This document shows positions 13,099 through 51,729 of a DNA stretch of 51,729 bases, piece by piece. Location: positions 1 through 51,729 of the IMG/VR virus record IMGVR_UViG_3300049893_000693, one strand, 5' to 3'. Source of the stretch: a virus. Lineage: Duplodnaviria > Caudoviricetes. The notes below the pieces were generated by a model. The model worked only from the letters and a program-made list of their open reading frames with translations, did no database searches and had not been told where the DNA came from. Made by a program: the position numbers and the translations under genes. Numbering within the stretch: the stretch's first letter is position 1; each line of letters starts with the position of its first letter.

Positions 13099-13247
13099 CC
13101 GGCTCATGTAATGTTTGCCATCACGATGGCACGATCTACGCAGAACATGACGCGGAGACTGGCGAGATCATCCCGTTCTGCCCAGTGTGTCTGAGTGAAG
13201 ACGTGAACACGGATACGGATATCGAATCTTCAAAGGTAGGACGATGA
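13095..13247 (+). CDS. Small Zn-ribbon protein, 50 aa (not in ORF track)
   Basis: MTGSCNVC...FCPVCLS; GAGG SD; ATGA overlaps at both ends. Confidence 0.65.
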   Translation: MTGSCNVCHHDGTIYAEHDAETGEIIPFCPVCLSEDVNTDTDIESSKVGR

Positions 13248-15749: not shown

Positions 15750-15789
15750 AACCGGACTAGGACGTAAACCACCCAAGCCTCTACGTATT

Positions 15790-15889
15790 GTTGAGAATAC
15801 GAATGCTCAACCCGGGTGCCGCACCGTAAGGCGGCGGGCGTATACGGTTTCCAATTACGCCGTCTGACCCCACGTTACGGGGTCTTTAT
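15790..15889 (+). ncRNA. Run of four hairpins upstream of the tRNA-like element; the last is terminator-like
   Basis: GTTGAG/CTCAAC; GCCG..CC-GTAA-GG-CGGC (GNRA loop); GGCGTA/TACGCC; GACCCC/GGGGTC followed by TTTAT. Confidence 0.45.
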
Positions 15890-15890
15890 G

Positions 15891-16001
15891 GGTCACATCG
15901 TCTAATTCTTCGGCCTAGTATAACGCGTTGAAGAGCCGAAACGGTTAAGTTCCAGCGATAACATGCTGGCGATGTGGGTTCGAACCCCACTGTGACCCCC
16001 A
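15891..16001 (+). tRNA. tRNA-like element with non-canonical anticodon loop and 36-nt D-loop insertion
   Basis: Acceptor GGTCACA/TGTGACC, discriminator C and encoded CCA; T-arm GTGGG-TTCGAAC-CCCAC; stem CCAGC/GCTGG with 8-nt loop GATAACAT. Confidence 0.8.
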
Positions 16002-16017
16002 CCCTCTAAGGAGCATC

Positions 16018-16122
16018 ATGGCTAAACTAAAGACACCACGCCGAAAACCCCCGGCGCATGAAATCTCTACTAAACGTGTGCTAGGCAAGGGCTGGCGTAA
16101 AGGTTCGCGTCATGCCAGATAA
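16018..16122 (+). CDS. Small Arg/Lys-rich peptide, 34 aa (not in ORF track)
   Basis: AAGGAG SD; MAKLKTPRRKPPAHEISTKRVLGKGWRKGSRHAR; overlaps next start. Confidence 0.6.
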   Translation: MAKLKTPRRKPPAHEISTKRVLGKGWRKGSRHAR

Positions 16123-20266: not shown

Positions 20267-20684
20267 CTGTGACTTCAAGAAGCACTACGCGGTGGACACG
20301 ACCGGGTTGGTTTGGTTAAAGGCGTCGGACAACTGGGGCGCTCCATACCACGAATGGAGCCATTTCGACGCGATTCTATTTGAAATAGCTTCGCCAGTAG
20401 ATTATACCCCAGATGGTAACAAAGCCATCGCGTATAACAAACGGAAATGGACCATCTGGAACGTGGCTCAGGCCGTCCATCTGGCAGATGTCAATTCATG
20501 CCGCAATTTCCTGGTCGCCTCCTCCTCCCAATGGACCAAGGGCTACGACCTCAAGACGCGGCACCATATGGCTGGGTGCAAGCAGAAACAGAAGGATCTG
20601 CGCGAATGCGAAGCGATGATTTGGTTCTACAAGCAGGACCCAAGTGCCTGGGTCCCGCTACCGCAGTACTTATCCGCGCTTTAA
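20247..20684 (+). CDS. Putative RuvC-like (RNase H fold) resolvase
   Basis: N-terminal ILAID, ILFE, W.K, C-terminal EA pattern. Confidence 0.5.
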   Translation: MSILAIDCDFKKHYAVDTTGLVWLKASDNWGAPYHEWSHFDAILFEIASPVDYTPDGNKAIAYNKRKWTIWNVAQAVHLADVNSCRNFLVASSSQWTKGYDLKTRHHMAGCKQKQKDLRECEAMIWFYKQDPSAWVPLPQYLSAL

Positions 20685-23600
20685 TCGACCATATCGGCCA
20701 GACTCTCCAGCCACATATCCTGTAGGCGGATCTGGCGCATCGCAGTAGGTCCAAGGGTTGCGCGTAGTGCGCGTTCGGCTGCCCAGCGTTCGTCACTGTC
20801 CTCACCGCCCTTGAGTTTGTCCAACAAGCGGCGGTCGAGGATGGCATTACGCAAATCCGCCGTATCTTTGTCCAGCTTGAACAGCATACGTGTGGCATCG
20901 CTAATAGCTTTTCGGCGAGCCGTGCCGTCTTTATTCTTGGCTGCGATGATTATACGTTTAGCCGCTTTGCTGACTTCGCTCAATTCGCCCATTCCGCCAG
21001 TCAATGGCCGACTCATCATATCAGGATTCTTCTCGGCCCATTTATAGAAGCTATTGGTTGCCATCCGGCGATTAGGGTCTTCTCCGATCGCCGCTGACCA
21101 GCCCAGCATATCCCGCATAGCTCCAGCGGCCGGAGTCTGATTGATCAACATACCACGACGACCTAGGACCGCGTCATAGAATCCATCATCTTCAATCGCA
21201 CCGTAGGTCTTTACTAGATCCGCAACCTTAGCACCAGGATAGCTCAGTGCCCTAATAGCATCTTCGGCCGTGAGTTTACCCGGCTTTCTAGCCGCGCCGA
21301 TCGTGTCCAGAGCCGCTTGCATAGACCCGCCAACAAAGGCTCGCCATGCGGTCTCATACACAAAGTTATCAAGATTTTCTACCTTCTGCTTAACTCCAGT
21401 CGTACCCCCACGCAGGAAGGCCAGCGCCGTGACAGTTGCCGCGCCTCCAAGGCCGAGTCCGGCGACCTTAGATAGCAGATTGGCGGCATGTCCAGTTGCT
21501 TCCCATCCCTCCCCCCGATTCATGGCCGAGACAAAGTTGTCGGTCATACGGACGAAGTTGCGCATCTGTTGTTCAGCGAATGAGGCAAACGCTGGCCCAT
21601 ATTTACGCAGCAGGCCGTATCGCTGCAAGAGACCTTGGGACGCTTTACTCGCTCCTTCACTGGTAGTAGCTTCTACGACCTTCCTAGCAAGTAAGCCCAC
21701 ATCTGATTGCTTGATCTGGCCGTCTAACATACGCATAGCCTCAGCTTCAGAGAAGCCGAGATTCTTCAGGCGGGCCATCTCGTACTTAGATCCCCGCAAC
21801 TTCCCACTTGCCATAGTCGCTGCGTAGTCCACTGCCGCGTTTGCCGCAGTGAGCGCCGAGAAGCGATTCATACTAATCTTGTGTGACATCGTACGTATAA
21901 GATTAGCCGCGACGTTCGCCGCCGAGCCACCAAGATCGACCATATCAACGGGCAGCGCCCCAATCTTTTCAGCCGCTTGACCTGATGCCCTGTATTCAGT
22001 GATCGCTTGGACTAACCCCTTAGCGAGACTCTTAGCCGGAACAGACCCAGCGTGGCCTAACACTCCAAGTGTATTACCTATGCCGCTTAACGACAGATTC
22101 AACGCTCGACCTGGAATAGTCAGAGCATTATTAAACTTATCCAGCAGTTTAGGCGTCTGCACTCCCAAGTCCCGGCCATGCAGCGACTGGAAAGCCTTAT
22201 GAATTGCCGCGCTCGCCGTGGAACCAATTTCTGCGTCTTCAAACCGCTCCATACTGGAGGGGTCCCAGGCTTTACCAAACTCCTTAATGAAGGCGATACG
22301 ATTAGCGGCGCCTCCTGTTACTTTACGGATATACGACGGTAGGTTTAGGTCCAACACCGGAATATGCTTGCCATTAACGTAGATGTCGGATGGAAACCAC
22401 TTGAAGACACGCGTCATTTCCATGGCGTCGCGTTTGATCATTGCATCACTAGCTGAGTGCCCGATCTGTTGAATCTGATCCATCCAGGCTTTGATCGCCT
22501 CGGGGTTCTCGCCATGGCGTTCCAGGGCCTTAGCAAATATCTCGCGTGTGCCCTTAGTATTCTGCAAAGCCGAAACAAACTCGTCAGTGACAAAGCGGTT
22601 AAAGCCCCGTCCACCTTCATATCCCTTAAATGTGCCTCCAAGCACTTTCTCTACCCCAGCTTTGCGCGCCCAATCACCTGTCAGTTTGTTGACAGCGTGT
22701 ATGGCTTTTACCGCTCCAGCCAGGAACGGCGAAAGCCCCGTGGTATTCCCCGTATCCAGCGCATGAAGTAAGGGACTACGTACTGCTGCCGTAGCTTTAG
22801 TCTCGATTAATTGATTATGATTGGAGGGCAACGATGCCCGCCGAACCTCTTTTGCTTTGACTAAGTTAAGGCCCGTAGATACATCTCGAATAGCCTTACT
22901 CACGGTTTCGCCCGCTTCTCCTTGCAGGCGAGACGATTCCATCTCCGTTTTGCGGATACGTTCGGCGGTCTTGGTAGCCCCAAGAGACTTCACCTGTTCC
23001 CAAGCAGATTTTACCGGACGTGTGAGGAACCCCCACGGTTTGGTTACAGTTTCGGGCGGTAGACCAGCGTGCATCTCAAGTTCCGCCCGCGCCAATCTTT
23101 CCTGTTCGGCTTGCCACGCTGCCGCGTCTTCAGCGGTTCCAGCGGGAGCGACCTCTTTCGGCGTATTCGCCTCAGCCGCCGCGCGGGCGCGTTCAGTTTC
23201 GCGCAGTCTGATTTGTTCGGCGGCGTCGTGCGTAGCCTGTGGCGTATCCACGACCTCTTCATCGAGCTTCGCCGCCATCTCTTCCTGCGCCTGCTTGGCT
23301 TTAACATCTTCCCGAGCACTACGTTCGAGGTCACTAAGACTAACGTCGCCCTCAGCCGTCGCTACAGTGTCATAGGTTTGTTTCAGTTTACGAGTAGCAC
23401 TATTACCTTGTCCGACGATTCTGGATATGGCATTCTCCAGTTTGCCGAGTTTGTCTATTGCTACTGGATCTCCTCTATCCGCGCGCGCCCGCAACTTCCC
23501 AGCCTTCTCGTACAAAGATATAAGCTGCTTTTCTTCAACTGGATTGAGGGGACCCCGTTCGACCTCTTGTGGTCCTTTAGGTTGAATGCCTTTCTTGCGT

Positions 23601-25285
23601 CTTGACTTCTCCGCTCGTGCAGCAGCCTCCGCGCGCTTCTGTTCGAGCGTTTTTGGGGTGCGCGGAGTTTTCGCTTTGGGTGGGGTCGTGGTAAGCGGGA
23701 CCGCCTCTACTTGCGGCAATCCTTCGGCGGGCTGGACCCCTGCTTCGCGGACTTCGGGTTGGACCTGGGCGGGCTGGACCCGGCCTTCGGGTTCACCGAG
23801 CGGTGCTGGAGATCCCCGCTGCCCTGGCCCGAGGTCCTCTGGCCGAGGCTGGCCTGGCGGGCTTTCAACTGCGCTGACTGGCGCTGGGGCGTTGTCCCCT
23901 TGGTTCGTGGGCGGAAGGCTTCGCTGAGGTTCATTTGGTATCTCCGGTAAAACGGGAGGTTTAGGTGGTTCTACCTGTACGGTATCACCGATATGAGTGG
24001 TCGCAGTAAGTGGTTTCGCTTCAACTGGTGGAACACCTGGCAATTCGGGCGGCGCGGTAGGTTCAGGAGTAGAAGGCGCAGTATCCTTCGGAGCACGGAC
24101 TTTCCCGCGCTCTGCTCCTACCGGTGGGGCGGGCGGTTCCATCGCTGGAGGTGCCACCGTATCTCGCGTATTCCACAAAGGCGGCTGAGTCGGTTCCGGC
24201 ACCGGAACCGTCGTATCGTACAGCGGCGGCTGTGTCGGTTCTGGCACCGGGGGACGATCCAGCCCCAACTCATTAGGCGGGACCATGCGATCCGGCATAG
24301 GTTTAGCGCGAGTCATGTCCACAGCGACCGGAGGCGCTATTTCAGGTGGCGTCACCCCAGGAGCGACTGGACGTGGTTGTGGAAGATCGACGACTACGGT
24401 ATCTCCTGTTCGTGTAGTTCCGGTGGTCTGTGGCCGTGTGCGACCTCGCCCCAAGAAGGCCATCGCTACTCCAAGCCCACCACCAATTCCAGCGGACATT
24501 GGCGTTGATCGGAGTTCTTGCATCGCTCGCTCACGGTCCCCCGCTATACCAGATGCACCCGCTGCGATTGCTGGAAAGGCTATACCGAGACCTGTCGCTT
24601 TAGCTATCGTCGGAATAAAAGCTCGAGACGGGGCCAAACCTTCCAACGCTCTCGGAAGTGCTGCTGCTGATACTCCTTCAAGTACTCCCGCTGTAGCCGA
24701 GGCATAGGGATTTGCCCCAGCTTTATCTGAATCATACATACGTGCCCCAGCTAAAGCCGGGGCTTTTATTAACGTAGCACCAGGTATCATCCAGGTAGCC
24801 AAATCACTGCCAACTCGTCCGACCTCAGCCCCGAGCGTTTCATTCTGCGCTTTTACCGCGCCGCCCATTTCGGCTAGACTGTTTGGATCGCTTTCGCCAC
24901 GCATCTGGCGGGCACCCCGTTCCAGGTCTTCGACAGTTCGGGAACCTAGTCCACCCATCACCCGCAACGTTTTAGCCCCCTGCACCACAAAATCCCCAGC
25001 CGCCTGCCTAATACCAGCACCAATCTCCCCTGGCAGTTCTGTAGTTTTACGGAAAGCTGAACTGAGGACACCTTCAGGCGGGGCAGCGCGCGAGGTCTCT
25101 AGTGGACGGGACTGCGCCCATACATCAGTGTCAAACCGTTTCTTGTTAAACTTGGGATTCGCAAATAAACCTTGCTCACTCGCGCGACTGGCCACCCGCG
25201 AAGCAATATTTTCTTGGGACAAGTCCTTGCCTTCAGAGGACAATTCTTGTTTAGCCAACTCGATGAAGCGTGAAAGATCGGGCAT
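20681..25285 (-). CDS. Large internal virion / DNA ejection protein, 1534 aa
   Basis: Last late gene; Gly/Ala hydrophobic helices, long Pro-rich linker with PVPEPTQPPL repeat; podovirus synteny. Confidence 0.7.
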   Translation of the reverse strand: MPDLSRFIELAKQELSSEGKDLSQENIASRVASRASEQGLFANPKFNKKRFDTDVWAQSRPLETSRAAPPEGVLSSAFRKTTELPGEIGAGIRQAAGDFVVQGAKTLRVMGGLGSRTVEDLERGARQMRGESDPNSLAEMGGAVKAQNETLGAEVGRVGSDLATWMIPGATLIKAPALAGARMYDSDKAGANPYASATAGVLEGVSAAALPRALEGLAPSRAFIPTIAKATGLGIAFPAIAAGASGIAGDRERAMQELRSTPMSAGIGGGLGVAMAFLGRGRTRPQTTGTTRTGDTVVVDLPQPRPVAPGVTPPEIAPPVAVDMTRAKPMPDRMVPPNELGLDRPPVPEPTQPPLYDTTVPVPEPTQPPLWNTRDTVAPPAMEPPAPPVGAERGKVRAPKDTAPSTPEPTAPPELPGVPPVEAKPLTATTHIGDTVQVEPPKPPVLPEIPNEPQRSLPPTNQGDNAPAPVSAVESPPGQPRPEDLGPGQRGSPAPLGEPEGRVQPAQVQPEVREAGVQPAEGLPQVEAVPLTTTPPKAKTPRTPKTLEQKRAEAAARAEKSRRKKGIQPKGPQEVERGPLNPVEEKQLISLYEKAGKLRARADRGDPVAIDKLGKLENAISRIVGQGNSATRKLKQTYDTVATAEGDVSLSDLERSAREDVKAKQAQEEMAAKLDEEVVDTPQATHDAAEQIRLRETERARAAAEANTPKEVAPAGTAEDAAAWQAEQERLARAELEMHAGLPPETVTKPWGFLTRPVKSAWEQVKSLGATKTAERIRKTEMESSRLQGEAGETVSKAIRDVSTGLNLVKAKEVRRASLPSNHNQLIETKATAAVRSPLLHALDTGNTTGLSPFLAGAVKAIHAVNKLTGDWARKAGVEKVLGGTFKGYEGGRGFNRFVTDEFVSALQNTKGTREIFAKALERHGENPEAIKAWMDQIQQIGHSASDAMIKRDAMEMTRVFKWFPSDIYVNGKHIPVLDLNLPSYIRKVTGGAANRIAFIKEFGKAWDPSSMERFEDAEIGSTASAAIHKAFQSLHGRDLGVQTPKLLDKFNNALTIPGRALNLSLSGIGNTLGVLGHAGSVPAKSLAKGLVQAITEYRASGQAAEKIGALPVDMVDLGGSAANVAANLIRTMSHKISMNRFSALTAANAAVDYAATMASGKLRGSKYEMARLKNLGFSEAEAMRMLDGQIKQSDVGLLARKVVEATTSEGASKASQGLLQRYGLLRKYGPAFASFAEQQMRNFVRMTDNFVSAMNRGEGWEATGHAANLLSKVAGLGLGGAATVTALAFLRGGTTGVKQKVENLDNFVYETAWRAFVGGSMQAALDTIGAARKPGKLTAEDAIRALSYPGAKVADLVKTYGAIEDDGFYDAVLGRRGMLINQTPAAGAMRDMLGWSAAIGEDPNRRMATNSFYKWAEKNPDMMSRPLTGGMGELSEVSKAAKRIIIAAKNKDGTARRKAISDATRMLFKLDKDTADLRNAILDRRLLDKLKGGEDSDERWAAERALRATLGPTAMRQIRLQDMWLESLADMVD

Positions 25286-37299: not shown

Positions 37300-40200
37300 C
37301 TAATTACCCTCAAGAGCCTGGAACGACTGTAACGGAGTTCCTGTCCAGGTCTTAGATAGTATGACCGTTGCGGTACCTTTCAACCGCTTTTCGATTACCG
37401 CCGAGGTATGAACTTCATCAGCTTCAACCAGATCCTTGACGGTGTCAATCGCGGCAAGCTGGGCCGATTCGGTGGGGGTAAGGCCAGATACGCCAGTCTC
37501 GGCGATGAGGATGGTGTTCTTCCATACTACGTCGATGCCGCCGCCACCGCTCGACTTGACTGGGTAGGCGTCATCGGCGCGGAAGATGCGGCGGTTGTCT
37601 AGTTGGCGCAGATTCGTGGCGGTGGTGTTGTCAAGGTACAGATTAACAATCGAGTTGTTAATACGGAAGTTAGCCTGATCTATCGCGGTAATACCGCCAA
37701 CGAACTCTTGGATACCTTGGTCGCTTTCGAGATTATACGACCACCATGCGTACATGTCCGCAATGTTGAAGTTGGCTGCGACTGTGACGTTCACCTCGTC
37801 GTTGACATAGTCTGCGGCGAATCCCGTAACCGTACTCCCATCAATGCCGAGCGCAACGTACACAACGTCTACTTCCTGCCCAGCTAGTACCGTCCAGCCA
37901 GACGACGAGGCGACAACTGTAGTAACGTAGGTTAGATATCCTCGCTTGTGTATCGTCACTCGCACGGTATCGCCAGCCGTGTAGTCTGTGCCTTCCGTAT
38001 AAGTATCGCTATAGCTAGTACCAGGAGTACCGAGATAGATTTCGGTGTCTGTGGTCACGTTGTAGACGCGGACCTTGCTGCCAGACACGATATTGGTGAT
38101 CGTGGCCGAGCCGACAGTAGGAGGCGTGCCATAGGTTCCATCGTCGGACTGGAAGCGGGTGAAGTCAGGGTGCGGAGTGCCACCAGTGCGGATGACGCGA
38201 ATGCCGACAAGATCATCTGGACTGTTATGGAGGATACCTCGCAGAGTCTCATAAGACGCTCCATTATCCAATACCATCTCAGGCCAGAAGAATGGTTCCT
38301 TGCCTTGAAACGTGGCGTCTTGAGCGAGGTTGTAATTGAGCCAGCGCAGGATCGTATCACCGGAATTGGCCGCGCTGTCTGTGATAGTGACGCTATAGTT
38401 CTTTGCCCCGTCGCCCGCGTCCCAAGACACGGGAGAAGCGCTATCATCAGTCAAGGTAAGGTTCGTCGCTGACGGATCGCCAAGCGTAAGGCCGTCAATC
38501 GCCGACATCGTGAGGGTGATGATGTAGAGGACTGGCTCCATCGTAGCGATGCCGTACACAGTAAGCACGTCAGTCTCGGCTTGCCGGTATCCGTTCCTCT
38601 GCACCTTGAATTGCAGATTGCTGCGCTTGTTGAAATTGCCGTGCGTGGCATCACCGTACATTTTGATAATTTCGTTTACATTGCCCGTAGCGCGAGCATC
38701 AGCTATCGCACCAGACCCAAGCTCATACTCAGGTTGCGATCCGGCGACTACGCCTTGCGAGAGTATGCCGACGAACTCAGCCGTCACAACTTCCGCTGCG
38801 CTCAAGTAGCGAACGCCGCCGCCTGTCATGTTCGTGATAGACGCGTCTGTTGCACCTTCCGCGCCATTAAGCAGGAATAGAGATGTGGCACCATTCATGC
38901 TGAGATTGAACGGGGTATTTCGTAGGCTCGTCTCGCTGATGAACGAGTCAATCATCAGAGAGTACACGTCACGGATGTTCGGTCCCCACGTCGGCACTGT
39001 CAGTTGATTATTAGCGCGGCTCCAGCTTGCGTCGGTCGTGTAGGTCAGGCCGTGGGCAGCGTTGTAGTTGTAGTCCGTGACCATCGTGAACGGCTGCGAC
39101 ATCGTACCTGACAGCACCACGCCCGTCAGTCGCTGCGGGATGAATCCCGCCTTTTGCGCCACGATGTCCACCGTTTCGCCGCTATGGGTATAGACTAGGC
39201 TTGTTCCGGTAGTTGAAGCGAGGACGGTCTGCGTACCAGTCGTGAAGATTTGCAGTAGTGTATTTGTTTCGGTGCTGGTGACCGTGATGTCCGCCGTGGG
39301 CACGACAATAGAAACGGTAGCCCCTGCGCTGGTGATGTCGCCAGCCGATAGCGATGTCGTTCCGGCGACGGTGATGGTGACGGTTCCAGTCGTCTTCAAG
39401 ACGTGGATCTTGTCGGTTCCAGGTGTGCCCGAGAAAGTAACATCGGTAAGCGTGAACGCCGTCACCGACGTACCTAGCTCGATATGATATCCAGCCGACG
39501 TGCCGGTAAGGTCAATTGTCGTCCTGGTCATTGACGAATTGGTGTCGAACTTGATTGCAGCTTGGGTTGATGTCGCCAATGTCTCCGTGATTACACAATC
39601 GACAACCGCCGCTCCTTTTGCGTCTATAACCTCGCTACCAATTACGGATATACCGGTAAAAGGGACACCCGTTTTCCAGGTTAGCTTTGTTCCGCGTGCG
39701 ATCCATCCCTGCGTGTAGGTCGTCGCGCTAGTGCTGTAATCCGCGTGCAAGGTAATGTTGATTATTTTAGCCGACGACACCGGCCATTGCCGTAGGTCAA
39801 TCGTATCAGATGCGCTTGCCTTGAAGGTGATGGTGTTGACAAGAGAATCGACAATATAGTTTTTGACGAGATACGGGTATTCAACAGATGCGGCCACACC
39901 TGCAAACGTAGTTATATTGGTTCCATCCCCGATCTGAACGTCGGTGCACCATACATCCTGTAATTCGCCTTGCGACGATGCACGGAAACCGTCACCGAAC
40001 CCATTAAGGTAACGCGATACCTCTCTTGGGGTCAACCCTCCGGTCAGGATTAGCGGGGCGGCCTTGGCCAGACCAGTCAGCGTCACATAGCGTGTTGCGG
40101 TGTTGGTTCCGCTTCTTTTCCACACAAGCCCGAAATACTTGATATCCGTGATATCTAATACACCGCTGGAATCAATCAGTGGTAGTTTGGTAAACTCACC

Positions 40201-41490
40201 GTGAAACATCGTTACATTGGTTGCGTTGGCACCGCCAGAGGATGATGCAGGCGGGTAGTACGTCCTGCGATACGCCCAATTTCCTGCACTGTCTTCAAGG
40301 TACATTCCGAAAGTTGCAGGTGCGATGTTCATTCCAGTCTGACCATACCCGACTGTGAAGACACCGCTAAGGTCAGCAGACGATAAAGCTGAGATTACAA
40401 ACCCATAATATAGCGCACCATTAGCCGGGTGCGCGTGAGCCACCGCAGCCCACGAAATAAAGCCGCCAGCAAACGGTGGGGATGGGATTCTCTGCGTTTC
40501 GTCCAGGGTAAGCGTGGTAAAGGCGTCTGTGTTTACTCCTAGAAAGGAGGCTCTCCTTGTAGTAATCTGCGCGACTGACGACGCGGGATCGGAAGTCCCG
40601 AACCTTTTGACGTATTCAATCCCGCCAGTTGCTATCGGCGCTTTTCGCCCACCACTTTTGTTGCGTAGGACAAAACGTACAGATAAATAGCGCACGTTTG
40701 CCGAGCTTGTTATTGTCTCTGACGCTATAGCCGCCGCCGTGCCCTGACCGAATGCCTGCGAGAATATCACCCTACCGGTTTGATTGTACAGGACGTTCTG
40801 CTTGCGAGTCGTGATATTGTAATAGGTGTTACCTGCTTGCTGCATGATCGTATCTACGATCAGACCACCGTTGTTCGCCGGGGTTATCGTAGCGAGCACG
40901 CACGACGTTGTGACAGAGTTTCCAGAATGTACTATTTGCGCCGGGGCCTTTTTAACGGTAACGTTTGACACCGTTGTTGATGCAGCCGTCGCCAAGGTGG
41001 CAGTCCCCGCGCCAACAGATGAGACATACGCCAGCAGGTTCGCTCCAGACACCCCAGCCCCTGGCACCATGATGGTGACGCCTGCCACGAAATCACCAGT
41101 GGCACCAGAGAAGGTCAGTGTCGTTGAACCGGAATTGATAGACCCCGTGCAAAGCGTTACGTCGGTTACATCGAACGGGGCCGTTCCATCAACGTCCCGG
41201 TATATTTCAGCCCCGACAGTGAAAGCGACTGGCGACGCTACGCTAACCGTAGGGTTTGGTTCATTCGCACCCGCTATCTTATAGCACGCGCCGAAACGGC
41301 AAACGGCGGAGGTGCCCTGCTGTGCCACGAACTCCGTGTATCCGGCAGGGTATGTGATTACATGCGAGTTGGTTTCATTGACGAATAATACAATGAGATC
41401 GCCTGCCTTTGTCTCTCCAATGTCAACCTCGACCGACGATACCGTCGTATCCTCTTGCGCCGTGAGAATTGCGTTGACGAGGTATGCCAT
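37300..41490 (-). CDS. Large Thr-rich beta-structured virion protein (fibre/adhesin-like)
   Basis: ~1396 aa, T/V/G-rich multi-domain. Confidence 0.6.
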   Translation of the reverse strand: MAYLVNAILTAQEDTTVSSVEVDIGETKAGDLIVLFVNETNSHVITYPAGYTEFVAQQGTSAVCRFGACYKIAGANEPNPTVSVASPVAFTVGAEIYRDVDGTAPFDVTDVTLCTGSINSGSTTLTFSGATGDFVAGVTIMVPGAGVSGANLLAYVSSVGAGTATLATAASTTVSNVTVKKAPAQIVHSGNSVTTSCVLATITPANNGGLIVDTIMQQAGNTYYNITTRKQNVLYNQTGRVIFSQAFGQGTAAAIASETITSSANVRYLSVRFVLRNKSGGRKAPIATGGIEYVKRFGTSDPASSVAQITTRRASFLGVNTDAFTTLTLDETQRIPSPPFAGGFISWAAVAHAHPANGALYYGFVISALSSADLSGVFTVGYGQTGMNIAPATFGMYLEDSAGNWAYRRTYYPPASSSGGANATNVTMFHGEFTKLPLIDSSGVLDITDIKYFGLVWKRSGTNTATRYVTLTGLAKAAPLILTGGLTPREVSRYLNGFGDGFRASSQGELQDVWCTDVQIGDGTNITTFAGVAASVEYPYLVKNYIVDSLVNTITFKASASDTIDLRQWPVSSAKIINITLHADYSTSATTYTQGWIARGTKLTWKTGVPFTGISVIGSEVIDAKGAAVVDCVITETLATSTQAAIKFDTNSSMTRTTIDLTGTSAGYHIELGTSVTAFTLTDVTFSGTPGTDKIHVLKTTGTVTITVAGTTSLSAGDITSAGATVSIVVPTADITVTSTETNTLLQIFTTGTQTVLASTTGTSLVYTHSGETVDIVAQKAGFIPQRLTGVVLSGTMSQPFTMVTDYNYNAAHGLTYTTDASWSRANNQLTVPTWGPNIRDVYSLMIDSFISETSLRNTPFNLSMNGATSLFLLNGAEGATDASITNMTGGGVRYLSAAEVVTAEFVGILSQGVVAGSQPEYELGSGAIADARATGNVNEIIKMYGDATHGNFNKRSNLQFKVQRNGYRQAETDVLTVYGIATMEPVLYIITLTMSAIDGLTLGDPSATNLTLTDDSASPVSWDAGDGAKNYSVTITDSAANSGDTILRWLNYNLAQDATFQGKEPFFWPEMVLDNGASYETLRGILHNSPDDLVGIRVIRTGGTPHPDFTRFQSDDGTYGTPPTVGSATITNIVSGSKVRVYNVTTDTEIYLGTPGTSYSDTYTEGTDYTAGDTVRVTIHKRGYLTYVTTVVASSSGWTVLAGQEVDVVYVALGIDGSTVTGFAADYVNDEVNVTVAANFNIADMYAWWSYNLESDQGIQEFVGGITAIDQANFRINNSIVNLYLDNTTATNLRQLDNRRIFRADDAYPVKSSGGGGIDVVWKNTILIAETGVSGLTPTESAQLAAIDTVKDLVEADEVHTSAVIEKRLKGTATVILSKTWTGTPLQSFQALEGN

Positions 41491-41548
41491 CACCCACCCC
41501 GCTTGCCAGGGTGGGTACGGATTACTGCACCTATCTCGTTACGTGGCA

Positions 41549-43413: not shown

Positions 43414-46400
43414 TTAGGTTGATGCAAGAAGTTTGTAGGTGGTACCGTTGATGGTTATGGTCACATATCCGGTAGCCGTGGGCGGCGTAGCAGAATACGT
43501 CCCTAGCGCCCATCCGTAATTTCCACTGAACCCTGCGTAGACCACCGTTTCTGAAAACACCCAATCTTTGGACCACACTTTTCCGCCGCCGATTTGGACC
43601 TCTCCAGACGCCACGGAAGACGGAGAGGCCCCTCGGCACACGGTTACGCCTGTACTAAGCCACTCTATCGGATAATTATTGTCCGTTCTATTGTAGAGGG
43701 CCAACGCATTAGCGGTGTTACCGTTAAGATAGAACTCCCACCTCCGACCACTAGCCGCTGTATCGCCAAGGATAAGCCCTGGGCCTCCACCATTCTGCGC
43801 GGACCATACACGTCCGCCGCCAATCTTCACTTCTCCAGACGCCACAGACGAAGGCGCTGATCCAGTGAACGTTACCGCTCCCAGCGCATTGATCTGATCG
43901 CTTGCACCGCTGCCGTGCGAACTGGCGTGTGGGGCGACCGCTGCCGTTCCGCCACCTGGAACCGTGCTGCTAGTGCGATAGTCGGTCGCGCTAATGAAGG
44001 TTGGCGAGCCGCCCTGGTTCCGGTAGATCACACGGTAGAGCAGTTTCAATTCTTGCAGACTCAGACCGGTCCATGCCGCAGTCGCAGTCGATAAGGCTGC
44101 CTGGGCGTCAGTCAGCGTGGCGTATTCGGTAGTCCCGACGCGAATCCAGATTGGACTGGTGGTGTCGGTCGTAGCGTACACATCGTTGATGACGTATTTG
44201 CCCGAGGCCACGTTCGTTGCGGTTCCTGCGCTGTCGAATTGCAATGTCCCACCACTCACCAGATACGGCGTCGATTCAGTGGTAAAATACATCGCGGAAT
44301 TGGTCCCGCTATACCGCCATAGACGACAGGTGGTTGACGTTCCTGAGGCGGTGAAATTAATGTCCTCGTCGTGGATCACGCCTTGCGTAATCGACAATGT
44401 TGTATTGTCGAAAGTTCCAGACAGCCCCGTCTCATACCGTGTGCCGATGGTCTTGTGCGCCCACAGATGCCACGGCAGGTTTCGTCGTGCCCCGTGTCGT
44501 TCCTCGTTGATGGCATATACCGTTGTCGGATGGTAGTAATAGATCGTGGCCACGGGAATGGTCGTCGTCAGCAAGAGGTCCCATGGATTCGTACTCTGTA
44601 CCAGATTCGGCACACCATTGGTGACTTTGAATGAGATGAAGTATAGTCCTGACGCTGCTGGAAGCGTGCAGGAATCCTCTGCTAAATCATATTCGCGCCC
44701 CTCGTACCATATCTTGAAGGTGCTACCAGTAGGCGAGATCGTGAACACGCGGAAGGTCGGGTCGAAGCTGTATGTTGCGTCTGTTCGGCTATCGAACCCC
44801 TGTTGCCGGTGGAAGTCCTGATAGTGGACTCCGTTGTCGATGTGGACGAAGATGGTTCCGTCGACCGTGCTGTTAAGAGCATAGCCAACAATCACGCGAT
44901 GATTCGGGAATGCTGGTTCGACGTTGGTCAAACCGCCCGCCACAGTCGGGGACAGATAGAGTACGTCGCCGTCTGCGAATCCCATAGTATTGATTCCACG
45001 CACCAACCCAAGAACCGTTACATACCCCTCCGCATTATTTGCGGTATCAGCGGTCACGACGCCGATGGTATGGTGCGGAGAATCCCCGGTGTCTCCGATG
45101 GCCAAGGCCATGCTAGGCCGGTTGCCTTGCGCCCCGTCCACGTAGACGACCTGCCCGTTGGTTATCGTGCCGCCCGTTTTGTTGACGCAGCGGACCCAAT
45201 TCTCTTGGCCGACCTGCAACGTCGCTCCTGAGATTTCAGATTGCAAGGACAACGTGTGATCGACGCTGTCCCAATACATCCGGCCTTCGAGATGCGCCGG
45301 AACCACTGATGGGGTTAATTGAAAATACCCATGCGCTGCGACAACCCCTCCACCTATCTGTACCTCGCCAGGGTCTACTGTTACTGGTATTCCGCCACGA
45401 AACCGCGCCGTTTTAGTTGCGTGGTGGAAATCTAAATAGAAGTCGGTTCCTGGCGCTGTGCCGACACTGAGGATAGCCCCATTGATTATAGTTCCTCCAC
45501 CGATACTCGTCTGGTTGGAAATCCAAGCTGACGGTTTTTGCCCCGTGATTTCCGCATAGTCATACCACTTGGCGAGATTCCCGCCGTGACCAGCGAAGCG
45601 CATCCCCTCTGGCATCAGCTCGAAGGATACGTCTAGGTGTCCAGCCTCACTATTGCTGATGCCGATGTGCGCCAACTGATACCCAATTTTGCTAGCAAAC
45701 ATCAAGTGCATGCCGTCCGATGCGAACCCCGCTGCTGGAGGTTGCAGGATGATACCGCACGTTCGTGGCTCGCCGCCACCGGGACGGGTTATTGTGTCCC
45801 CACCAAACACACGAAGGCCGCCGCTCGCCCAAATCTTGCCGCCACCGATTCGCGTTTCTGCCGTCAGGGTTATTCCGACCCCCGGTGTAGATACCGGCCC
45901 GCCACCAAGGAACTGCGCCCATTTCGTGTCGTTGTCGAAGATAGCATAGGCCGAAGCAGTCGGCAACGCGCCGACGCCCAGGGTTTCCCCGGCCAAGACC
46001 ATGCCGCCGCCAAGCTGGACTTCAGAAGTAGTAAGAATCGTGGGAGCAAAACCTAATACATGCTGCCGCTGTGTGAAGGTCTGTTCCCGCTCCAGCAACG
46101 CCATCGTGCCGCTAAAATCGGGGATCGAGATTGTCCGGGCCTGTGACAGATTCGCTTTAAGCGTCAAGTCCGCGTTCACGATATCAGTAACTAGATGCTC
46201 CAGATCCAGTTCAACCTTGCCCGCATCGCCATCGAACAATCTAACCCAGTTCCGGCCAAACGCCGACATATCGGTAATCTGGTCAGTTGTGATTGAAATA
46301 GGCCCAGTACTGCCAGATCCAGATCCAGCAGTACCAGGATTGATTAGAATACGCGTAGCTGACGTGGCTTTACCAATCGACCCACCAACCACCAATACAC

Positions 46401-46617
46401 CATCCGTTCCACATCCATAGCCAGTACCAGGAACCAGACTAGCCAATTTCAGTTCAGCTTCCCCAACAGTCTCAACACTAAACCTATCCCCATCCTTTAC
46501 ACTCGTGACAATACCATCCGGCGTATCGCTAGGCTGTGCCAACCGGTATTTACCCGACTCAGACACCACCCAACGATACGCCGAAAGGCCATGCGAAGGC
46601 TGATATACACTCCGCAT
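43414..46617 (-). CDS. Fibre-like virion protein with repeated GEV(Q/K)IGGG motifs
   Basis: Five copies of an E(V/T)x(I/L)GGG motif; C-terminal ITINGTTYKL. Confidence 0.7.
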   Translation of the reverse strand: MRSVYQPSHGLSAYRWVVSESGKYRLAQPSDTPDGIVTSVKDGDRFSVETVGEAELKLASLVPGTGYGCGTDGVLVVGGSIGKATSATRILINPGTAGSGSGSTGPISITTDQITDMSAFGRNWVRLFDGDAGKVELDLEHLVTDIVNADLTLKANLSQARTISIPDFSGTMALLEREQTFTQRQHVLGFAPTILTTSEVQLGGGMVLAGETLGVGALPTASAYAIFDNDTKWAQFLGGGPVSTPGVGITLTAETRIGGGKIWASGGLRVFGGDTITRPGGGEPRTCGIILQPPAAGFASDGMHLMFASKIGYQLAHIGISNSEAGHLDVSFELMPEGMRFAGHGGNLAKWYDYAEITGQKPSAWISNQTSIGGGTIINGAILSVGTAPGTDFYLDFHHATKTARFRGGIPVTVDPGEVQIGGGVVAAHGYFQLTPSVVPAHLEGRMYWDSVDHTLSLQSEISGATLQVGQENWVRCVNKTGGTITNGQVVYVDGAQGNRPSMALAIGDTGDSPHHTIGVVTADTANNAEGYVTVLGLVRGINTMGFADGDVLYLSPTVAGGLTNVEPAFPNHRVIVGYALNSTVDGTIFVHIDNGVHYQDFHRQQGFDSRTDATYSFDPTFRVFTISPTGSTFKIWYEGREYDLAEDSCTLPAASGLYFISFKVTNGVPNLVQSTNPWDLLLTTTIPVATIYYYHPTTVYAINEERHGARRNLPWHLWAHKTIGTRYETGLSGTFDNTTLSITQGVIHDEDINFTASGTSTTCRLWRYSGTNSAMYFTTESTPYLVSGGTLQFDSAGTATNVASGKYVINDVYATTDTTSPIWIRVGTTEYATLTDAQAALSTATAAWTGLSLQELKLLYRVIYRNQGGSPTFISATDYRTSSTVPGGGTAAVAPHASSHGSGASDQINALGAVTFTGSAPSSVASGEVKIGGGRVWSAQNGGGPGLILGDTAASGRRWEFYLNGNTANALALYNRTDNNYPIEWLSTGVTVCRGASPSSVASGEVQIGGGKVWSKDWVFSETVVYAGFSGNYGWALGTYSATPPTATGYVTITINGTTYKLLAST

Positions 46618-47349: not shown

Positions 47350-47580
47350 TTAGTCAACTAATTTAACCAGGAGGATCTGGTACCCTGGTATTACCTCATC
47401 AGCCTTGCGTTTTATGCCTGCACCAAAGTAGAGCCACATTTGTCCATCATGTCGTTGGTACGCCTTCCACTCCCGGTACTGCTTGTACTGCTGAGAGGAC
47501 AGCACGATGTAGACACCATGCTTGTTCACGACAGGCTTGGCCCCTTGGGGTAGTTCGATAGTCCTCCACTCTGCGGCCAT
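47350..47580 (-). CDS. Hypothetical protein
   Basis: GGAGG SD; TAATG coupling to terminase. Confidence 0.65.
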   Translation of the reverse strand: MAAEWRTIELPQGAKPVVNKHGVYIVLSSQQYKQYREWKAYQRHDGQMWLYFGAGIKRKADEVIPGYQILLVKLVD

Positions 47581-49148
47581 TACTTCCTCCGCATCTTATA
47601 CGCCGACCCGTTGAGTCGCCTGAACGGTGCCTCATCGTTTCGGGTGATGTCGCTCGTACGGGCGATCATGTACTCGTGGGTCCAAATCTTACGACCATCC
47701 TTATCGCGCGTCTCATCTGGCCCTTCTGGCTCTTTTGGCTTAGGCGGGGGTATCACGTCCATGTCGAGGGCCAAGAACCCATTAGCCAGCGCGTCTACAA
47801 GATCGTCCTCACCCTCTGACTCTGGCATGAACTGAAGCAGTTGGGGCTTTAATGTATGGGTGTAGAAATCACCTTCGGGGAAAAAGACTTGTCCAGCCTC
47901 CATACGCGCCCGAAAAGCGTGGGCGTGGACGTGTTTTGCGGCAGTTCTACTGTGCCTAGATAGCGAAACATACCACTTTTGCTTGGACATTTCAGCCCTA
48001 AACACGGGTTCCAGAGTGGACTGAATCGGCCCCTTTTCAGTAGCCAGGACCCTAGATTTTAGGGTTTTAGCGAGTTTTATGGTCTTTTCTACTGAGTCGA
48101 GTGACTCGAACCGCCCATAATGGATGGTAGGGTGGATATAGACATTCCCCTTATGGTCCACTCCCAGCGCCACCACGGCGGTATGGTCGGCTGTGGTCTT
48201 GGTAGACACAGCGTAGTCAGCCGCGACGAGCCACCGCAACTCAGTATCTTCAGGCAGGGTCTGGTATGTACGGAAGTGCTTGGCTTGGAAGAACCCGCCC
48301 TCTTCGATATACGGGCTACACTGATACATAGAGGCCCACACCCTAGGCGGGAGGGACTTCTTCAGCATAGCGGCTTCAGATGCTGGGTATCGCTCTGGAT
48401 GCAGTACCTCGCCCTTCTTCCGATACAGTTCGTCTACCTTGGCTTCCTCGGGGAACTCGTAGACAATCCAGTTCTCGTGAGAATGGTCTCTAAGAACGCG
48501 TCCAATAAGGTCGTCCACATGCCAGCGTGTGGCAGTAATGATAACACCACCGCCAGGATGAAGGCGAGTGCGAGCGACAGAATTATACCACTCACCAGCG
48601 CGATCTCGAATAAGCTGAGAATCAGCATCTTGCTGATCTTTGCAATAGTCGTCAATACAGAGGATGTGCGCGCCCATGCCCGTGAGCGCACCTCCAATGC
48701 TTGTGGATTTATACATGCCTCCGAGCTTCGTACGAACGAAGTCTGCGGCATTGGATCGGGGGTCGAGTTTGACATCGAATAGGTCCTGATATACGGGGTT
48801 ATTGAGGAGTTCACGGACTTCGCGCCCAAAGCCGTCGCTGAGGTCCTGCCCATATGTAGCAGTGATCCACTCCCACTCAGGATGCTTGGCCAGGACGTAG
48901 GGGGGCAGCTTGCGCGACACGATTTCAGACTTGCCACGGCGCGGCGGGCAGGTGAGAATGAGCCTAGGCGACTTCTTCTGCTCTACGCCTAGGATGAAGT
49001 CGTCAAGCAGTTCACACAGCCGGGTATGGAACCAGCCAGCCTTGTACTCACGGTGGAACAGTTGGATGAACGGCAACAGGGACCGTCTGGCCATCTCCCG
49101 GTTAAGGAGTTCCAGATCCAACGCCGCCACCATCTCATTGTGGTCCAT
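47580..49148 (-). CDS. terL: Terminase large subunit
   Basis: PPRRGKS Walker A, LCIDD Walker B, TRWH.DDL.G, YQ..P, AAD.A, DDLVDA nuclease motif. Confidence 0.97.
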   Translation of the reverse strand: MDHNEMVAALDLELLNREMARRSLLPFIQLFHREYKAGWFHTRLCELLDDFILGVEQKKSPRLILTCPPRRGKSEIVSRKLPPYVLAKHPEWEWITATYGQDLSDGFGREVRELLNNPVYQDLFDVKLDPRSNAADFVRTKLGGMYKSTSIGGALTGMGAHILCIDDYCKDQQDADSQLIRDRAGEWYNSVARTRLHPGGGVIITATRWHVDDLIGRVLRDHSHENWIVYEFPEEAKVDELYRKKGEVLHPERYPASEAAMLKKSLPPRVWASMYQCSPYIEEGGFFQAKHFRTYQTLPEDTELRWLVAADYAVSTKTTADHTAVVALGVDHKGNVYIHPTIHYGRFESLDSVEKTIKLAKTLKSRVLATEKGPIQSTLEPVFRAEMSKQKWYVSLSRHSRTAAKHVHAHAFRARMEAGQVFFPEGDFYTHTLKPQLLQFMPESEGEDDLVDALANGFLALDMDVIPPPKPKEPEGPDETRDKDGRKIWTHEYMIARTSDITRNDEAPFRRLNGSAYKMRRK

Positions 49149-49754: not shown

Positions 49755-50254
49755 GGATCAGGGTCCAATACTATTGGTTCGGCTGGGTCGGGCGTGCTAG
49801 AGGAGTCTGGAGAGTTAGACGTGGCTGGCTTGTCGGGCACACGACTGTAGCCTGGATTGGGTATGGTGGATGGTAGGACTGGGGTACGGTTGAGCACGAC
49901 TACCCGCTCTGCCGACAGCAGTTTGGCATGGGCCTGGACCGAGCGGTTGTACTCTACCATGCACTGGTGCACGATCTGCCACATCTTATCTAACAAGGCA
50001 GTCGGCTCTGCGAAGGCGGCGTGTGGGATGGGGTCGGTGTTGTCTGCCAGGGCGTACCGCTGTAGGTTGCGGAGTGCGAGTTCGTACAGATTACGGTACT
50101 GGAGAAGGATTTGCAGGGCAGGTTGATCTGGCGGGGCGAACATGGTCTTACCCGCGCCGAATAGGATAACTTTGAATGAAGCGGCGACTTTAGATAGGGA
50201 TGCCTCGGTGCGATCCTCCACTTCAGGTATCATCATACGCGGCAATTTGGGCAT
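49745..50254 (-). CDS. Hypothetical first late protein
   Basis: ORF; ATG 50254 lies 7 nt after a -10-like element. Confidence 0.6.
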   Translation of the reverse strand: MPKLPRMMIPEVEDRTEASLSKVAASFKVILFGAGKTMFAPPDQPALQILLQYRNLYELALRNLQRYALADNTDPIPHAAFAEPTALLDKMWQIVHQCMVEYNRSVQAHAKLLSAERVVVLNRTPVLPSTIPNPGYSRVPDKPATSNSPDSSSTPDPAEPIVLDPDPCQ

Positions 50255-50261
50255 GCTAGGC

Positions 50262-50290
50262 AGCATTGCAACGATCGGGGGGATTGCAAG
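50262..50290 (-). promoter_or_regulatory. Putative late promoter CTTGCAA-N15-CAATGCT
   Basis: Shared motif at the head of the late operon. Confidence 0.5.
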
Positions 50291-50328
50291 CCAAGTATAG
50301 CCAAAATGAGCTATACTCGGCTAGACTT

Positions 50329-50359
50329 AGTTAGACTTGGCTGGACTTATTAGGTGTTA
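50329..50359. repeat. 10-bp periodic repeat GCTAGACTTA / GTTAGACTTG / GCTGGACTTA
   Basis: Read directly. Confidence 0.75.
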
Positions 50360-50532
50360 CAACCTCATACTAGTTCAGATTTTGATCCGCGCGGTATTGA
50401 GGCCGTGTTAAGTACGCCCAGCCGCCCGGCTCGACTAACCCCCCGGCGTACCCCACCCCTGACCAGTCTGACCAGCCCCAATAGCTTGTATGGTGTCATT
50501 ATTGACACACTATGGGTAGGACGTGTGACGTA

Positions 50533-51052
50533 TGAGGGTATTATGGATAGCGACAACAAAGCGCGGCGGGCTGGACGGAAGCCCGACGTACCGATCGGAG
50601 AAATCCCCCGACAACAAGGGGGCGGGGTATGCCTCAAACCTGGGCTTACTCTGTGGTCCGACCACGGGAACGGTGCTGCGCCTTCGAGACTTGCGGCGGG
50701 TTCTAAACCGCCACATCGTCTGATCCCTGCCCTAGGCTGACAGTGCTTTACTGCGGCACGATACCCTAGGGACAGTGCGACCGGTAGTCATGGTGATTGC
50801 CAGACGGTCGCACAAGGCACACTAGGGCGGAACGCTCGTCCTAGTCCTAAGTCCTGCAATCCCGTGCGCGGGATTGGTGCAAGCCGTCCGGTGAACGGCA
50901 TCGCTAGACAATCGCATCCCTAGGAAACCCTCGTACCGTCCGAACGGTGCTCGCAAGCCCTAGGGTTTGACGAGTCCGAATGGCTTAGGACACTCAAGCC
51001 TAAGCCTTTCGATGCTCGCCAATCCAGGCAAGCCCTATGCGCCAACCGCGCA
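50533..51052 (+). ncRNA. Candidate large structured non-coding RNA or early leader
   Basis: About 12 consecutive stems with G-U pairs on the + strand; no convincing ORF. Confidence 0.65.
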
Positions 51053-51062
51053 GGAGTATCCC

Positions 51063-51503
51063 ATGCCTTCTACCCTCGCCCCCACCCTGGAACAGTCCGC
51101 CACCAATGCCGTGGAGGTCCAGACCCCTGATGTCGTGGTCCTGGCGTCTACCGAGAAATTGAGCGCCAGCGAGGCTGGCAAGGTCGCCAAGCGCGCCGGT
51201 CATCTCGTCTTGGATGCTGGTGATGCGCTTGTGGTCGTCCGTGGCGACAGCGCCTTGGCCACCAATGTCGAATCCCGTCGAGGCCTCCGCAATTATGACA
51301 AGGTCATGGACAGCTTCGACAGTGCCACACCCGCCAGCATCCGCGCCGCGTGTGATGGCGCAAAGGCCCATCTCATGGATATGGTCAAAGCGACCAATGA
51401 AGCGGCCTTTGCGGCGCGGCGTGACATGCTGAATCAAGCCGCATCAGCCACTGGTTGGCGTCGCACGGTCCTGTTGCGCATGGCGCTCAAGGGCCTGAAG
51501 TAA
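51063..51503 (+). CDS. Hypothetical early protein, 146 aa
   Basis: AGGAG SD before ATG 51063; biased codons. Confidence 0.75.
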   Translation: MPSTLAPTLEQSATNAVEVQTPDVVVLASTEKLSASEAGKVAKRAGHLVLDAGDALVVVRGDSALATNVESRRGLRNYDKVMDSFDSATPASIRAACDGAKAHLMDMVKATNEAAFAARRDMLNQAASATGWRRTVLLRMALKGLK

Positions 51504-51515
51504 GTCTAGCCATCC

Positions 51516-51559
51516 GCATCATACTACCCAAGCCCTACTAGGTTAGTGTAGTATGATGC
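51516..51559. other. 12-bp inverted repeat GCATCATACTAC/GTAGTATGATGC
   Basis: Read directly; downstream of 51063..51503. Confidence 0.75.
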
Positions 51560-51729
51560 TATTACGTTTGACGATTCTCATGCGCCAAGTCTGACTTGAC
51601 GCATGGATGATCGCCATGCATCCTCACGCTCTAAAAGTGTCCTAACCTAAAAAGGTATTATTTCTTAATACCTTTTCACTTTTTAGGTAAAAAACGATTG
51701 AAACTCATGGCCCAAGGTTTGTTATGACT

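Follow-up and report, generated by a model that had tools for sequence, protein, structure and literature searches.

We identified a non-coding stretch of exceptional folding potential at the head of the early genes of phage IMGVR_UViG_3300049893_000693, whose whole IMG/VR virus record of 51,729 nucleotides (nt) is the window analyzed here. The stretch, positions 50533 to 51052, lies in the gap between the divergent late and early units, and it ends one base before the Shine-Dalgarno (SD) sequence of the first early gene. A positional analogue is present in the one relative with which it could be compared. We read the stretch as an untranslated, structured 5' leader (~50546-51062, + strand) of the first early transcription unit, a reading in which our confidence stands about midway between doubt and certainty.

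Folding potential and coding status

Fold energies were compared with those of 100 shuffles per strand, for the global fold and for a local fold in which the pair span was limited to 60 nt. On the + strand, the global fold of 50533-51052 has an energy of -235.8 kcal/mol, versus -195.8 +/- 7.5 for the shuffles (z -5.31; 0 of 100 as good). A preliminary description of this DNA, made from its letters alone, had asked for a check of fold energy against dinucleotide shuffles. The local fold, which contains hairpins only, gives z scores of -5.99 (+) and -3.35 (-), again with none of the 100 shuffles as good on either strand. Across 21 other 520-nt windows of this genome, the background z averages -0.42 on the + strand (standard deviation, 1.1; minimum, -2.6) and -0.16 on the - strand (minimum, -3.03).

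Other measures describe the same fold. When all 300-nt windows are ranked by GC-corrected energy on the + strand, 50601-50900 comes second from the bottom. Paired bases make up 63% of the stretch, and the longest unpaired run, at 9 nt, is the shortest among the 10 stretches compared. In 150-nt windows, the structure signal is confined to 50675-51050, where z scores on the + strand are -4.6, -2.9, -1.8, -4.7, and -2.5. The GC content of the proposed leader is 0.605, versus 0.545 genome-wide; non-coding phage DNA is usually AT-rich, so that this rise is the reverse of what is customary.

The stretch is non-coding. Open reading frames (ORFs) in the leader score -0.06 to 0.07 per codon in codon log-likelihood ratio, versus 0.15-0.58 for most accepted genes tested, and a conserved protein ORF, which the preliminary description had named as something that would refute its reading, was not seen, with neither codon signal nor real homologue found. 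A hidden gene was rejected for the ORFs at 50354-50740, 50532-50723, and 50543-50740, which have no codon signal and no Pfam or PHROG match. The 128-amino-acid (aa) frame has no homologue. A 65-aa frame behind a GAGGG motif has a single phmmer match, P0009 (E 4.5e-33), which is an artefact: P0009 is a 4171-aa tandem-repeat pseudo-protein over which 34 weak matches are summed, and one repeat alone aligns at an E value of 1.3. This frame also has no counterpart below E 2.2 in the related phage described below. Recoding of TAG as glutamine (TAG=Q), prompted by the many CTAG sequences, opened no sensible frame.

Known RNA classes were likewise not found. Rfam 15 returned no matches in the whole window at gathering scores and none in 50200-51729 at E values up to 10, in agreement with the preliminary description, which recognized no known family. 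ARAGORN called no tRNA or transfer-messenger RNA in the window. No terminator-like site that might serve as an intrinsic terminator or attenuator occurs on either strand of 50000-51729, where at most three T residues follow any hairpin. A CRISPR-like or tandem-repeat RNA array (e.g., of ToxI type) was rejected, there being no regularly spaced direct repeats in the stretch.

A structured stretch at the same place in a related phage

The only relative whose DNA was reached is IMGVR_UViG_3300021182_000017 (47,657 nt; here G001), with a TerL protein 80% identical to that of the present phage. The two genomes are collinear apart from a hypervariable early block of ~3.8 kb, which comprises 50267-51729 plus 1-2301 of the window and from which none of six tested proteins matches G001. 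Both flanks of the block are conserved: a late gene encoding a 173-aa protein (47% identical) and an early gene at 2302-2550 encoding an 82-aa protein (61% identical). At the same place, G001 has a 738-nt gap (1983-2720) followed by a non-homologous first early gene, and the gaps of the two phages do not align outside a 26-nt motif.

For the last 518 nt of the G001 gap, the early-sense z score is -4.94 and the antisense score is -3.85. The signal is strongest over the 300 nt that precede the AUG of the first early gene (z -5.6 and -5.2 in sense versus -3.3 and -3.4 in antisense). Both phages thus have, directly 5' of the first early ribosome-binding site, a long non-coding stretch that is raised in GC and dense in hairpins, without conservation of its sequence. 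An Rfam search of G001 gave eight sub-threshold matches, none of them inside the gap. The leader model is supported because folding potential has been kept in G001 while DNA and gene are not homologous, and because the fold lies far beyond both shuffles and genome background.

G001 also has a motif of its own, GGTATGAC/T, with 7 of 14 exact copies in its early control region (~1980-2720 and 1000-1520), in both orientations. One copy forms the perfect palindrome GGTATGATGTCATACC, and the six copies in the window are unclustered. To judge from this distribution, the motif is likely an operator or promoter element of G001.

Searches for further relatives covered several collections. A blastn search against the phage collection gave no match, and single-protein scans of viral contigs found no relatives. 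In TerL scans G001 alone was close; five other loci (L003 and L008-L011) share TerL only, at 21-39% identity. Cultured phages are all distant, the best TerL match in the phage collection being 36% identical. The family of the 173-aa neighbor was found in G001 only among viral contigs and not at all in metagenome contigs or genome contigs; five further relatives of this protein (P0002-P0005 and P0007) are known as protein sequences only, and the contigs that encode them measure 629 to 15,742 nt. A pattern scan with the conserved motif returned G001 plus four unrelated chance loci.

Hairpins and boundaries of the stretch

The positions of the hairpins and of the features at the edges of the stretch are given in Table 1. 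All 13 stems named in the preliminary description, which had called the gap dense in stems, are present where it placed them; 10 are fully Watson-Crick, and three G-T pairs in two of the stems are the only departures. It had also proposed that TGAGG and CCTCA pair to close a 5' multiloop. Both sequences are there, but the pairing is absent from the minimum-energy folds, global and local. The local fold is predicted to be mostly a string of simple hairpins and not a multi-junction architecture.

Nothing indicates that the chain arose by internal duplication or as a repeat array: the sole self-match inside the stretch is one 10-nt pair, and none of the direct-repeat families exceeding 10 nt is contained entirely within it. 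The sequences of the 13 hairpins are unrelated to one another. Together with the lack of duplication, this fits selection on pairing and not on the binding site of one protein.

Table 1. Hairpins of the proposed leader and features at its edges (positions in the window)
Feature	Positions	Strand	Remarks
Proposed leader, hairpin-dense, untranslated	50546-51052	+	~507 nt; core of structure signal 50675-51050
Hairpin 1, extended CGGGCT/AGCCCG stem	50563-50589	+	-13.9 kcal/mol
Hairpin 2, CCCCC/GGGGG, 8-nt loop GACAACAA	50605-50622	+	-10.0 kcal/mol
Hairpin 3, TCTGTGGT/ACCACGGG with G-U pairs	50650-50668	+	-8.9 kcal/mol
Hairpin 4, GGCGG/CCGCC, extended	50692-50715	+	-11.4 kcal/mol; pair probability 0.99
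Hairpin 5, outer CCCTAGG/CCTAGGG, internal loop, inner 5-bp hairpin	50728-50774	+	-18.4 kcal/mol; pair probabilities 0.95, 0.91
Hairpin 6, 16 bp in two helices, 4-nt bulge; longest duplex	50775-50813	+	-21.8 kcal/mol; pair probabilities 0.97, 0.89
Hairpin 7, ACTAGGGCG/CGTCCTAGT, extended	50815-50848	+	-14.9 kcal/mol; pair probability 0.96
Hairpin 8, 8 perfect pairs, loop TGCG	50857-50876	+	-11.0 kcal/mol on either strand
Hairpin 9, GCCGT/ACGGC, weak, better on - strand	50883-50899	+	-5.5 kcal/mol
Hairpin 10, basal helices, CCCTAGG/CCTAGGG, 8x8-nt internal loop, inner 7-bp hairpin	50907-50976	+	-26.2 kcal/mol; pair probabilities 0.83-0.97
Hairpin 11, GGCTTAGG/CCTAAGCC, extended to 13 pairs	50977-51011	+	-17.0 kcal/mol; pair probability 0.97
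Hairpin 12, 6 pairs, absent from the preliminary description	51014-51033	+	-7.1 kcal/mol
Hairpin 13, TGCGC/GCGCA, ends one base 5' of the SD	51038-51052	+	pair probability 0.94
Less structured part of the divergent gap, beside the late operon	50267-50519		local-fold z (50267-50532) -1.45 (+), -2.16 (-)
Candidate early promoter/regulatory site, TGTGAC-N-GGGTAT(T/G)ATG	50520-50545	+	-10-like hexamer TATTAT at 50539-50544
Ribosome-binding context AGGAGTATCCCATGCC	51052-51067	+	start codon at 51063
First early gene, 146 aa, orphan	51063-51503	+	codon log-likelihood ratio 0.43, typical of this phage's genes

Upstream of the hairpins, the gap has a different character. Windows of 150 nt from 50225 to 50450 have z scores of -0.6 to 0.0 on the + strand. 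Three direct repeats T(A/G)GACTT(A/G)(G/T) begin exactly 10 nt apart at 50322, 50332, and 50342, and an inverted repeat (50289-50301/50310-50322; 13 nt, 92% complementary) lies beside them. By its sequence, 50267-50519 is probably promoter and operator DNA, with repeats resembling the operators of divergent promoters.

The 26-nt motif at 50520-50545 is the sole piece of the gap that can be aligned with G001. It precedes the first early AUG by 518 nt here and by 485 nt in G001, and its composite form occurs once in the window and twice in G001, both times in the G001 gap. We regard it as a candidate for an early promoter or a regulatory site that borders the structured stretch on its 5' side. 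Sites of the form GGTAT(G/T)A(T/C) have no common upstream motif.

At the other edge, the stretch heads the early region as previously described, with its last hairpin directly 5' of the first early gene's SD. The genome contains the pattern AGGAGWWTCCCATGCC of this ribosome-binding context only twice, the other copy being the one where the next early gene begins (176-191); 0.12 copies would be expected by chance. In the source annotation, the first early gene starts at 51012, without an SD, and encodes 163 aa; at 51063, the start codon stands in a strong AGGAG context, as does that of the next early gene. The 17 extra codons of the longer version score 0.49 per codon and are too few to decide between the starts. 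The 146-aa protein matches only itself among 5.8 billion proteins and has no Pfam or PHROG family and no usable Atlas match.

A long-range pairing of 50618-50652 with 51053-51083, covering the SD and AUG, appears in the global fold with probabilities of 0.82-0.97. Such pairing would make a timer of the kind known from the MS2 maturation gene. It is an alternative to the local hairpins 2 and 3. The duplex energy was equaled in 29 of 500 leader shuffles and in 22 of 500 target shuffles, which makes it only marginally better than chance; nothing similar exists in G001, where all 500 shuffled leaders were as good. We set this "anti-RBS" pairing aside and keep it as a weak lead only.

A proposed leader and its possible role

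Under the leader reading, the early unit would begin at the candidate site near 50520-50545 and continue into the orphan gene (146 aa) at 51063. Its untranslated head would have been selected for folding into a near-continuous chain of ~13 stable hairpins, free of ORFs and of U-tract terminators. An untranslated RNA of 500 nt is normally exposed to Rho and RNases. Here, the hairpins would leave no long single-stranded RNA (no run of more than 9 nt) to Rho or to single-strand-specific RNases. As set out in a published account, Rut sites are preferentially regions of C>G composition with limited secondary structure, optimally 60-90 nt long, and Rho is blocked where a Rut site is sequestered in structure (PMC12360218). 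The long untranslated RNA could thereby survive, and transcription could reach the first early gene. The bulged 16-bp duplex at 50775-50813 may be a processing site, as a substrate of RNase III type, and the last hairpin, abutting the SD, would set the 5' context of translation. We infer each of these steps, as we do the transcription of the stretch, its strand, and its 5' end.

The leader reading would also place the stretch within a wider pattern. Every other early intergenic spacer is strongly structured on the + strand in 150-nt windows: 1046-1270 (z -7.0), 2171-2320 (z -6.6), and 2546-2770 (z -5.3). These spacers may contain terminators or processing hairpins between early genes. Because all of them are so strongly structured, structured non-coding RNA segments look like a general habit of this phage's early transcripts. 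The early spacer at 51500-51725, to which the suggestion of terminators or processing hairpins also applies, is strongly structured on the - strand (z -6.2 and -6.5).

Observations at odds with a leader and alternative readings

Several observations weigh against the proposed leader. Stems had been described across the whole ~520 nt, and this is true beyond chance for 50675-51050 and not for the 5' 140 nt: 50525-50675 has z scores of only -0.2 and -1.2, hairpins 1 to 3 are near chance, and the first 140 nt of the proposed leader have no significant structure in 150-nt windows. The candidate promoter is 19/26 identical to its G001 counterpart (45166-45191 of the reverse-complemented record), a marginal match even in a small search space (E 0.37), and it has no recognizable -35 element. 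A sigma-70 consensus scan of 50000-51729 found no promoters.

The strand is a further difficulty. The - strand global fold of 50533-51052, at -225.9 kcal/mol versus -202.1 +/- 6.7 (z -3.57), was also matched by none of the 100 shuffles. Non-Watson-Crick positions had been reported as G-T on the + strand and taken to indicate a + strand RNA; this is literally true of the named stems but does not set the strand, since whole local folds contain 14 G-U pairs on the + strand and 16 on the - strand. The energies of the 13 hairpins sum to -172.3 kcal/mol (+) versus -166.6 (-), with 9 versus 7 G-U pairs, and taken singly the hairpins are better on the + strand in seven cases, better on the - strand in five, and equal in one. 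Strand evidence from pairing is weak. Finally, CTAGGG or its complement has 7 of its 19 genome copies here (P ~7e-11, a value inflated by overlapping palindromic counts), a concentration that could reflect a sequence-specific DNA site.

Rightward RNA is nonetheless favored, on four grounds. The z score is more negative in the early sense than in antisense in both phages. The structure begins after the conserved motif, ends directly before the SD, and is absent beside the late gene. The hairpin sequences are diverse, and the other early intergenic spacers share the strong structure.

A + strand RNA need not be a leader. One or several stand-alone non-coding RNAs (ncRNAs), with their own ends or cut from the leader, might work in trans on some factor of the host or the phage, serving as its decoy, sponge, or regulator, a reading that we think unlikely. 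It draws on the same fold evidence as the leader does and on a length (~375-500 nt) that exceeds the usual need of a leader. The location in the hypervariable early block also speaks for it, as phage early variable regions usually house host-takeover and counter-defense functions. Large structured RNAs of unknown function do occur in phages and prophages, GOLLD and ROOL being examples (PMC12286853). Yet there is no terminator-like or other 3' end signal before the gene, the last hairpin running straight into the SD; no Rfam match exists at any threshold; the long-range helices of the global fold are predicted only, the remainder being mostly simple hairpins; and there is no sequence conservation with G001. 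It is similarly improbable that the core, 50675-51050, is a new class of large (~0.4 kb) phage structured RNA acting early, for instance as a decoy for a host RNA-binding defense or decay factor. Related phages would then keep the function in the same slot while replacing the sequence entirely, as with the adjacent orphan gene, a scenario for which we hold equally slim expectations. The preliminary description had left the choice between a large ncRNA and a cis-acting leader; the cis-acting leader fits the anatomy best, and the antiterminator it offered as one role would have no terminator-like site to act on in 50000-51729.

Because CCCTAGG and CTAGGG are concentrated here, the stretch might instead be read at the level of DNA. 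An array of palindromes bound by protein, chiefly CCCTAGG(G), might act as roadblock operators that shut off early transcription or as a packaging or replication signal, with the RNA fold as a by-product. Four of the five genome copies of CCCTAGG fall within 50730-50965, and in the G001 leader CTAGGG has 2 of 16 copies, a modest enrichment (P 0.009). Both strands beat their shuffles, and pairing without clear strand asymmetry is what DNA palindromes would give; the gap also adjoins the terminase operon. We nevertheless consider a DNA-level element doubtful. CTAG-type stems occur in only 4 of the 13 hairpins, and a single DNA-binding protein would not explain the other nine, with their unrelated sequences. 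Pairing within the stems is imperfect, the loops measure 3-9 nt, and inner hairpins are nested in them; the ends of the record also lie outside the stretch. An origin is opposed by the high GC content and by the absence of direct repeats or iterons; an iteron-like array with an AT-rich flank is instead found at 1-90 of the window.

That array lies at the very start of the record, where an AT-rich run (TATATATACTATAG...) gives way to a TTTCCTAG-type repeat, present in three to four copies with a 12-nt period (28-75), and to a perfect 11-nt palindrome at 69-90. It looks like an origin composed of iterons plus an unwinding region, or like some other protein-binding array. A similar TATATATAT motif is read through within the second gap of G001 (16-nt match), and for this reason the record ends (1-90 and 51650-51729) are probably contiguous in the real genome.

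Transcription in the opposite direction, which would provide the late operon (terminase and structural genes) with a long leader or else yield RNA antisense to the early one, strikes us as decidedly improbable. The - strand fold does beat all shuffles in both the global and the local test, five of the hairpins are more stable on that strand, and the late operon begins 280 nt to the left of the structured stretch, the sigma-70 scan having found no promoter for it. The - strand z is, however, the weaker one in both phages and, at -3.35 in the local fold, is close to the background minimum of -3.03. The part of the gap beside the late gene (50267-50532) is unstructured, while the structured part abuts the early SD.

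A stretch with no function of its own, as spacer or remnant DNA that accumulated palindromes in a fast-turning-over early region, would accord with the lack of sequence conservation in G001, the hypervariability of the whole 3.8-kb block, and the chance-level first 140 nt, but is very hard to credit given a z score of -6 far outside shuffles and genome background, a GC content that is raised and not lowered, the same property at the same place in the non-homologous G001 stretch, and a genome that is otherwise tightly packed.

Genome setting

The record, from a freshwater-sediment metagenome, is classed as linear and has a CheckV estimate of 100%. A search of sequencing runs gave no RNA run and one DNA run, which may come from the source sample; over about half of that run, no reads could be placed. 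Late genes occupy the - strand from 20681 to 50266, with TerL at 47580-49148; early genes run on the + strand from 51063 across the record end to ~20 kb, and their products include a family-A polymerase, an SNF2-type helicase, and a PD-(D/E)XK nuclease. The divergent gap between the two units measures 796 nt (50267-51062). No D.DGD-type motif of a phage RNA polymerase was found in the 32 proteins checked.

Some features lie apart from the stretch. Three giant late proteins of 1533, 1396, and 1066 aa are encoded on the - strand at 20681-25285, 37300-41493, and 43414-46617; they have no PHROG at E values up to 1e-5, no match among PDB sequences, and only sub-threshold Pfam matches (E 0.011, under the curated cut-offs). 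The early region has two more long gaps without a convincing ORF, at 12496-13243 (~750 nt) and 15750-16111 (362 nt). The latter had been called tRNA-like in the preliminary description, and ARAGORN calls no tRNA there.

Discussion

If the proposed transcription takes place, ~1% of this phage's tightly packed genome goes into a heavily folded RNA that is not translated and that precedes the very first gene. G001 does likewise with unrelated sequence, which points to selection for some requirement at the RNA level as infection begins. That requirement could be transcript survival, escape from Rho and RNases, or the timing of translation, matters hardly studied beyond model coliphages. With its 375-nt core and sharp boundaries, the stretch offers a test case, and it makes visible a conservation of structure alone that comparing sequences would miss. 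As a leader and nothing more, it would add one more instance to a familiar theme.

The lambda pL-N leader is ~220 nt long and contains nutL, whose boxA/boxB sequences serve the N protein; where ribosomes bind for N, it has a structure sensitive to RNase III, and terminators lie downstream. Our stretch is like it in being a long structured untranslated head of an early operon, with structure that reaches the ribosome-binding site of the first gene. It differs in length (~500 nt) and in having no Rfam match, no terminator-like site, and no identified N-like protein.

In the T7 early region, a long leader extends from promoters A1-A3, three tandem sigma-70 promoters, to gene 0.3; it is AT-rich, and RNase III sites lie between the early genes. 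The likeness here lies in hundreds of non-coding nucleotides before a first early gene that is itself variable and orphan-like and in stable hairpins before and between early genes, as in the three structured spacers noted above. Unlike T7, the present phage has no sigma-70-like promoters by the consensus scan, and its leader is GC-rich with wall-to-wall hairpins. An RNase III-type duplex comprises ~20 bp with an internal loop, compared with the 16 bp and 4-nt bulge of the hairpin at 50775-50813, which is a predicted fold only.

The put elements of HK022 are ~70 nt long, consist of two defined stem-loops, and act on downstream terminators. Like these and other RNA-only processive antiterminators, the stretch would be a structured RNA that acts in cis close behind an early promoter; at ~500 nt it is far longer, and no terminator-like site lies between it and the record end.

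GOLLD and ROOL are included among the Rfam models; a conserved multi-junction architecture backed by covariation defines them, and both often neighbor tRNA genes. Like them, the stretch is a candidate structured RNA of large size (~0.4-0.8 kb) and of unknown function, and the phage genome that contains it was sampled from an aquatic habitat (PMC12286853). It differs from them in having no Rfam match, no tRNA genes in the window, a simple hairpin chain, and a 3' edge that runs directly into the SD. Candidate cis-regulatory structured RNAs upstream of phage genes have also been predicted from IMG/VR, resting on covariation among many homologues (PMC10690425). The stretch is like those candidates in being a structured non-coding element placed upstream of a gene in uncultured viral contigs, and unlike them in that the one relative reached does not align with it.

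Of the lambda and T7 leaders and of GOLLD and ROOL, the stretch shares none of the tested defining features. By analogy, its nearest counterparts in function would be the lambda pL-N and T7 early leaders, and in size GOLLD and ROOL; it is novel in sequence, yet of a familiar kind.

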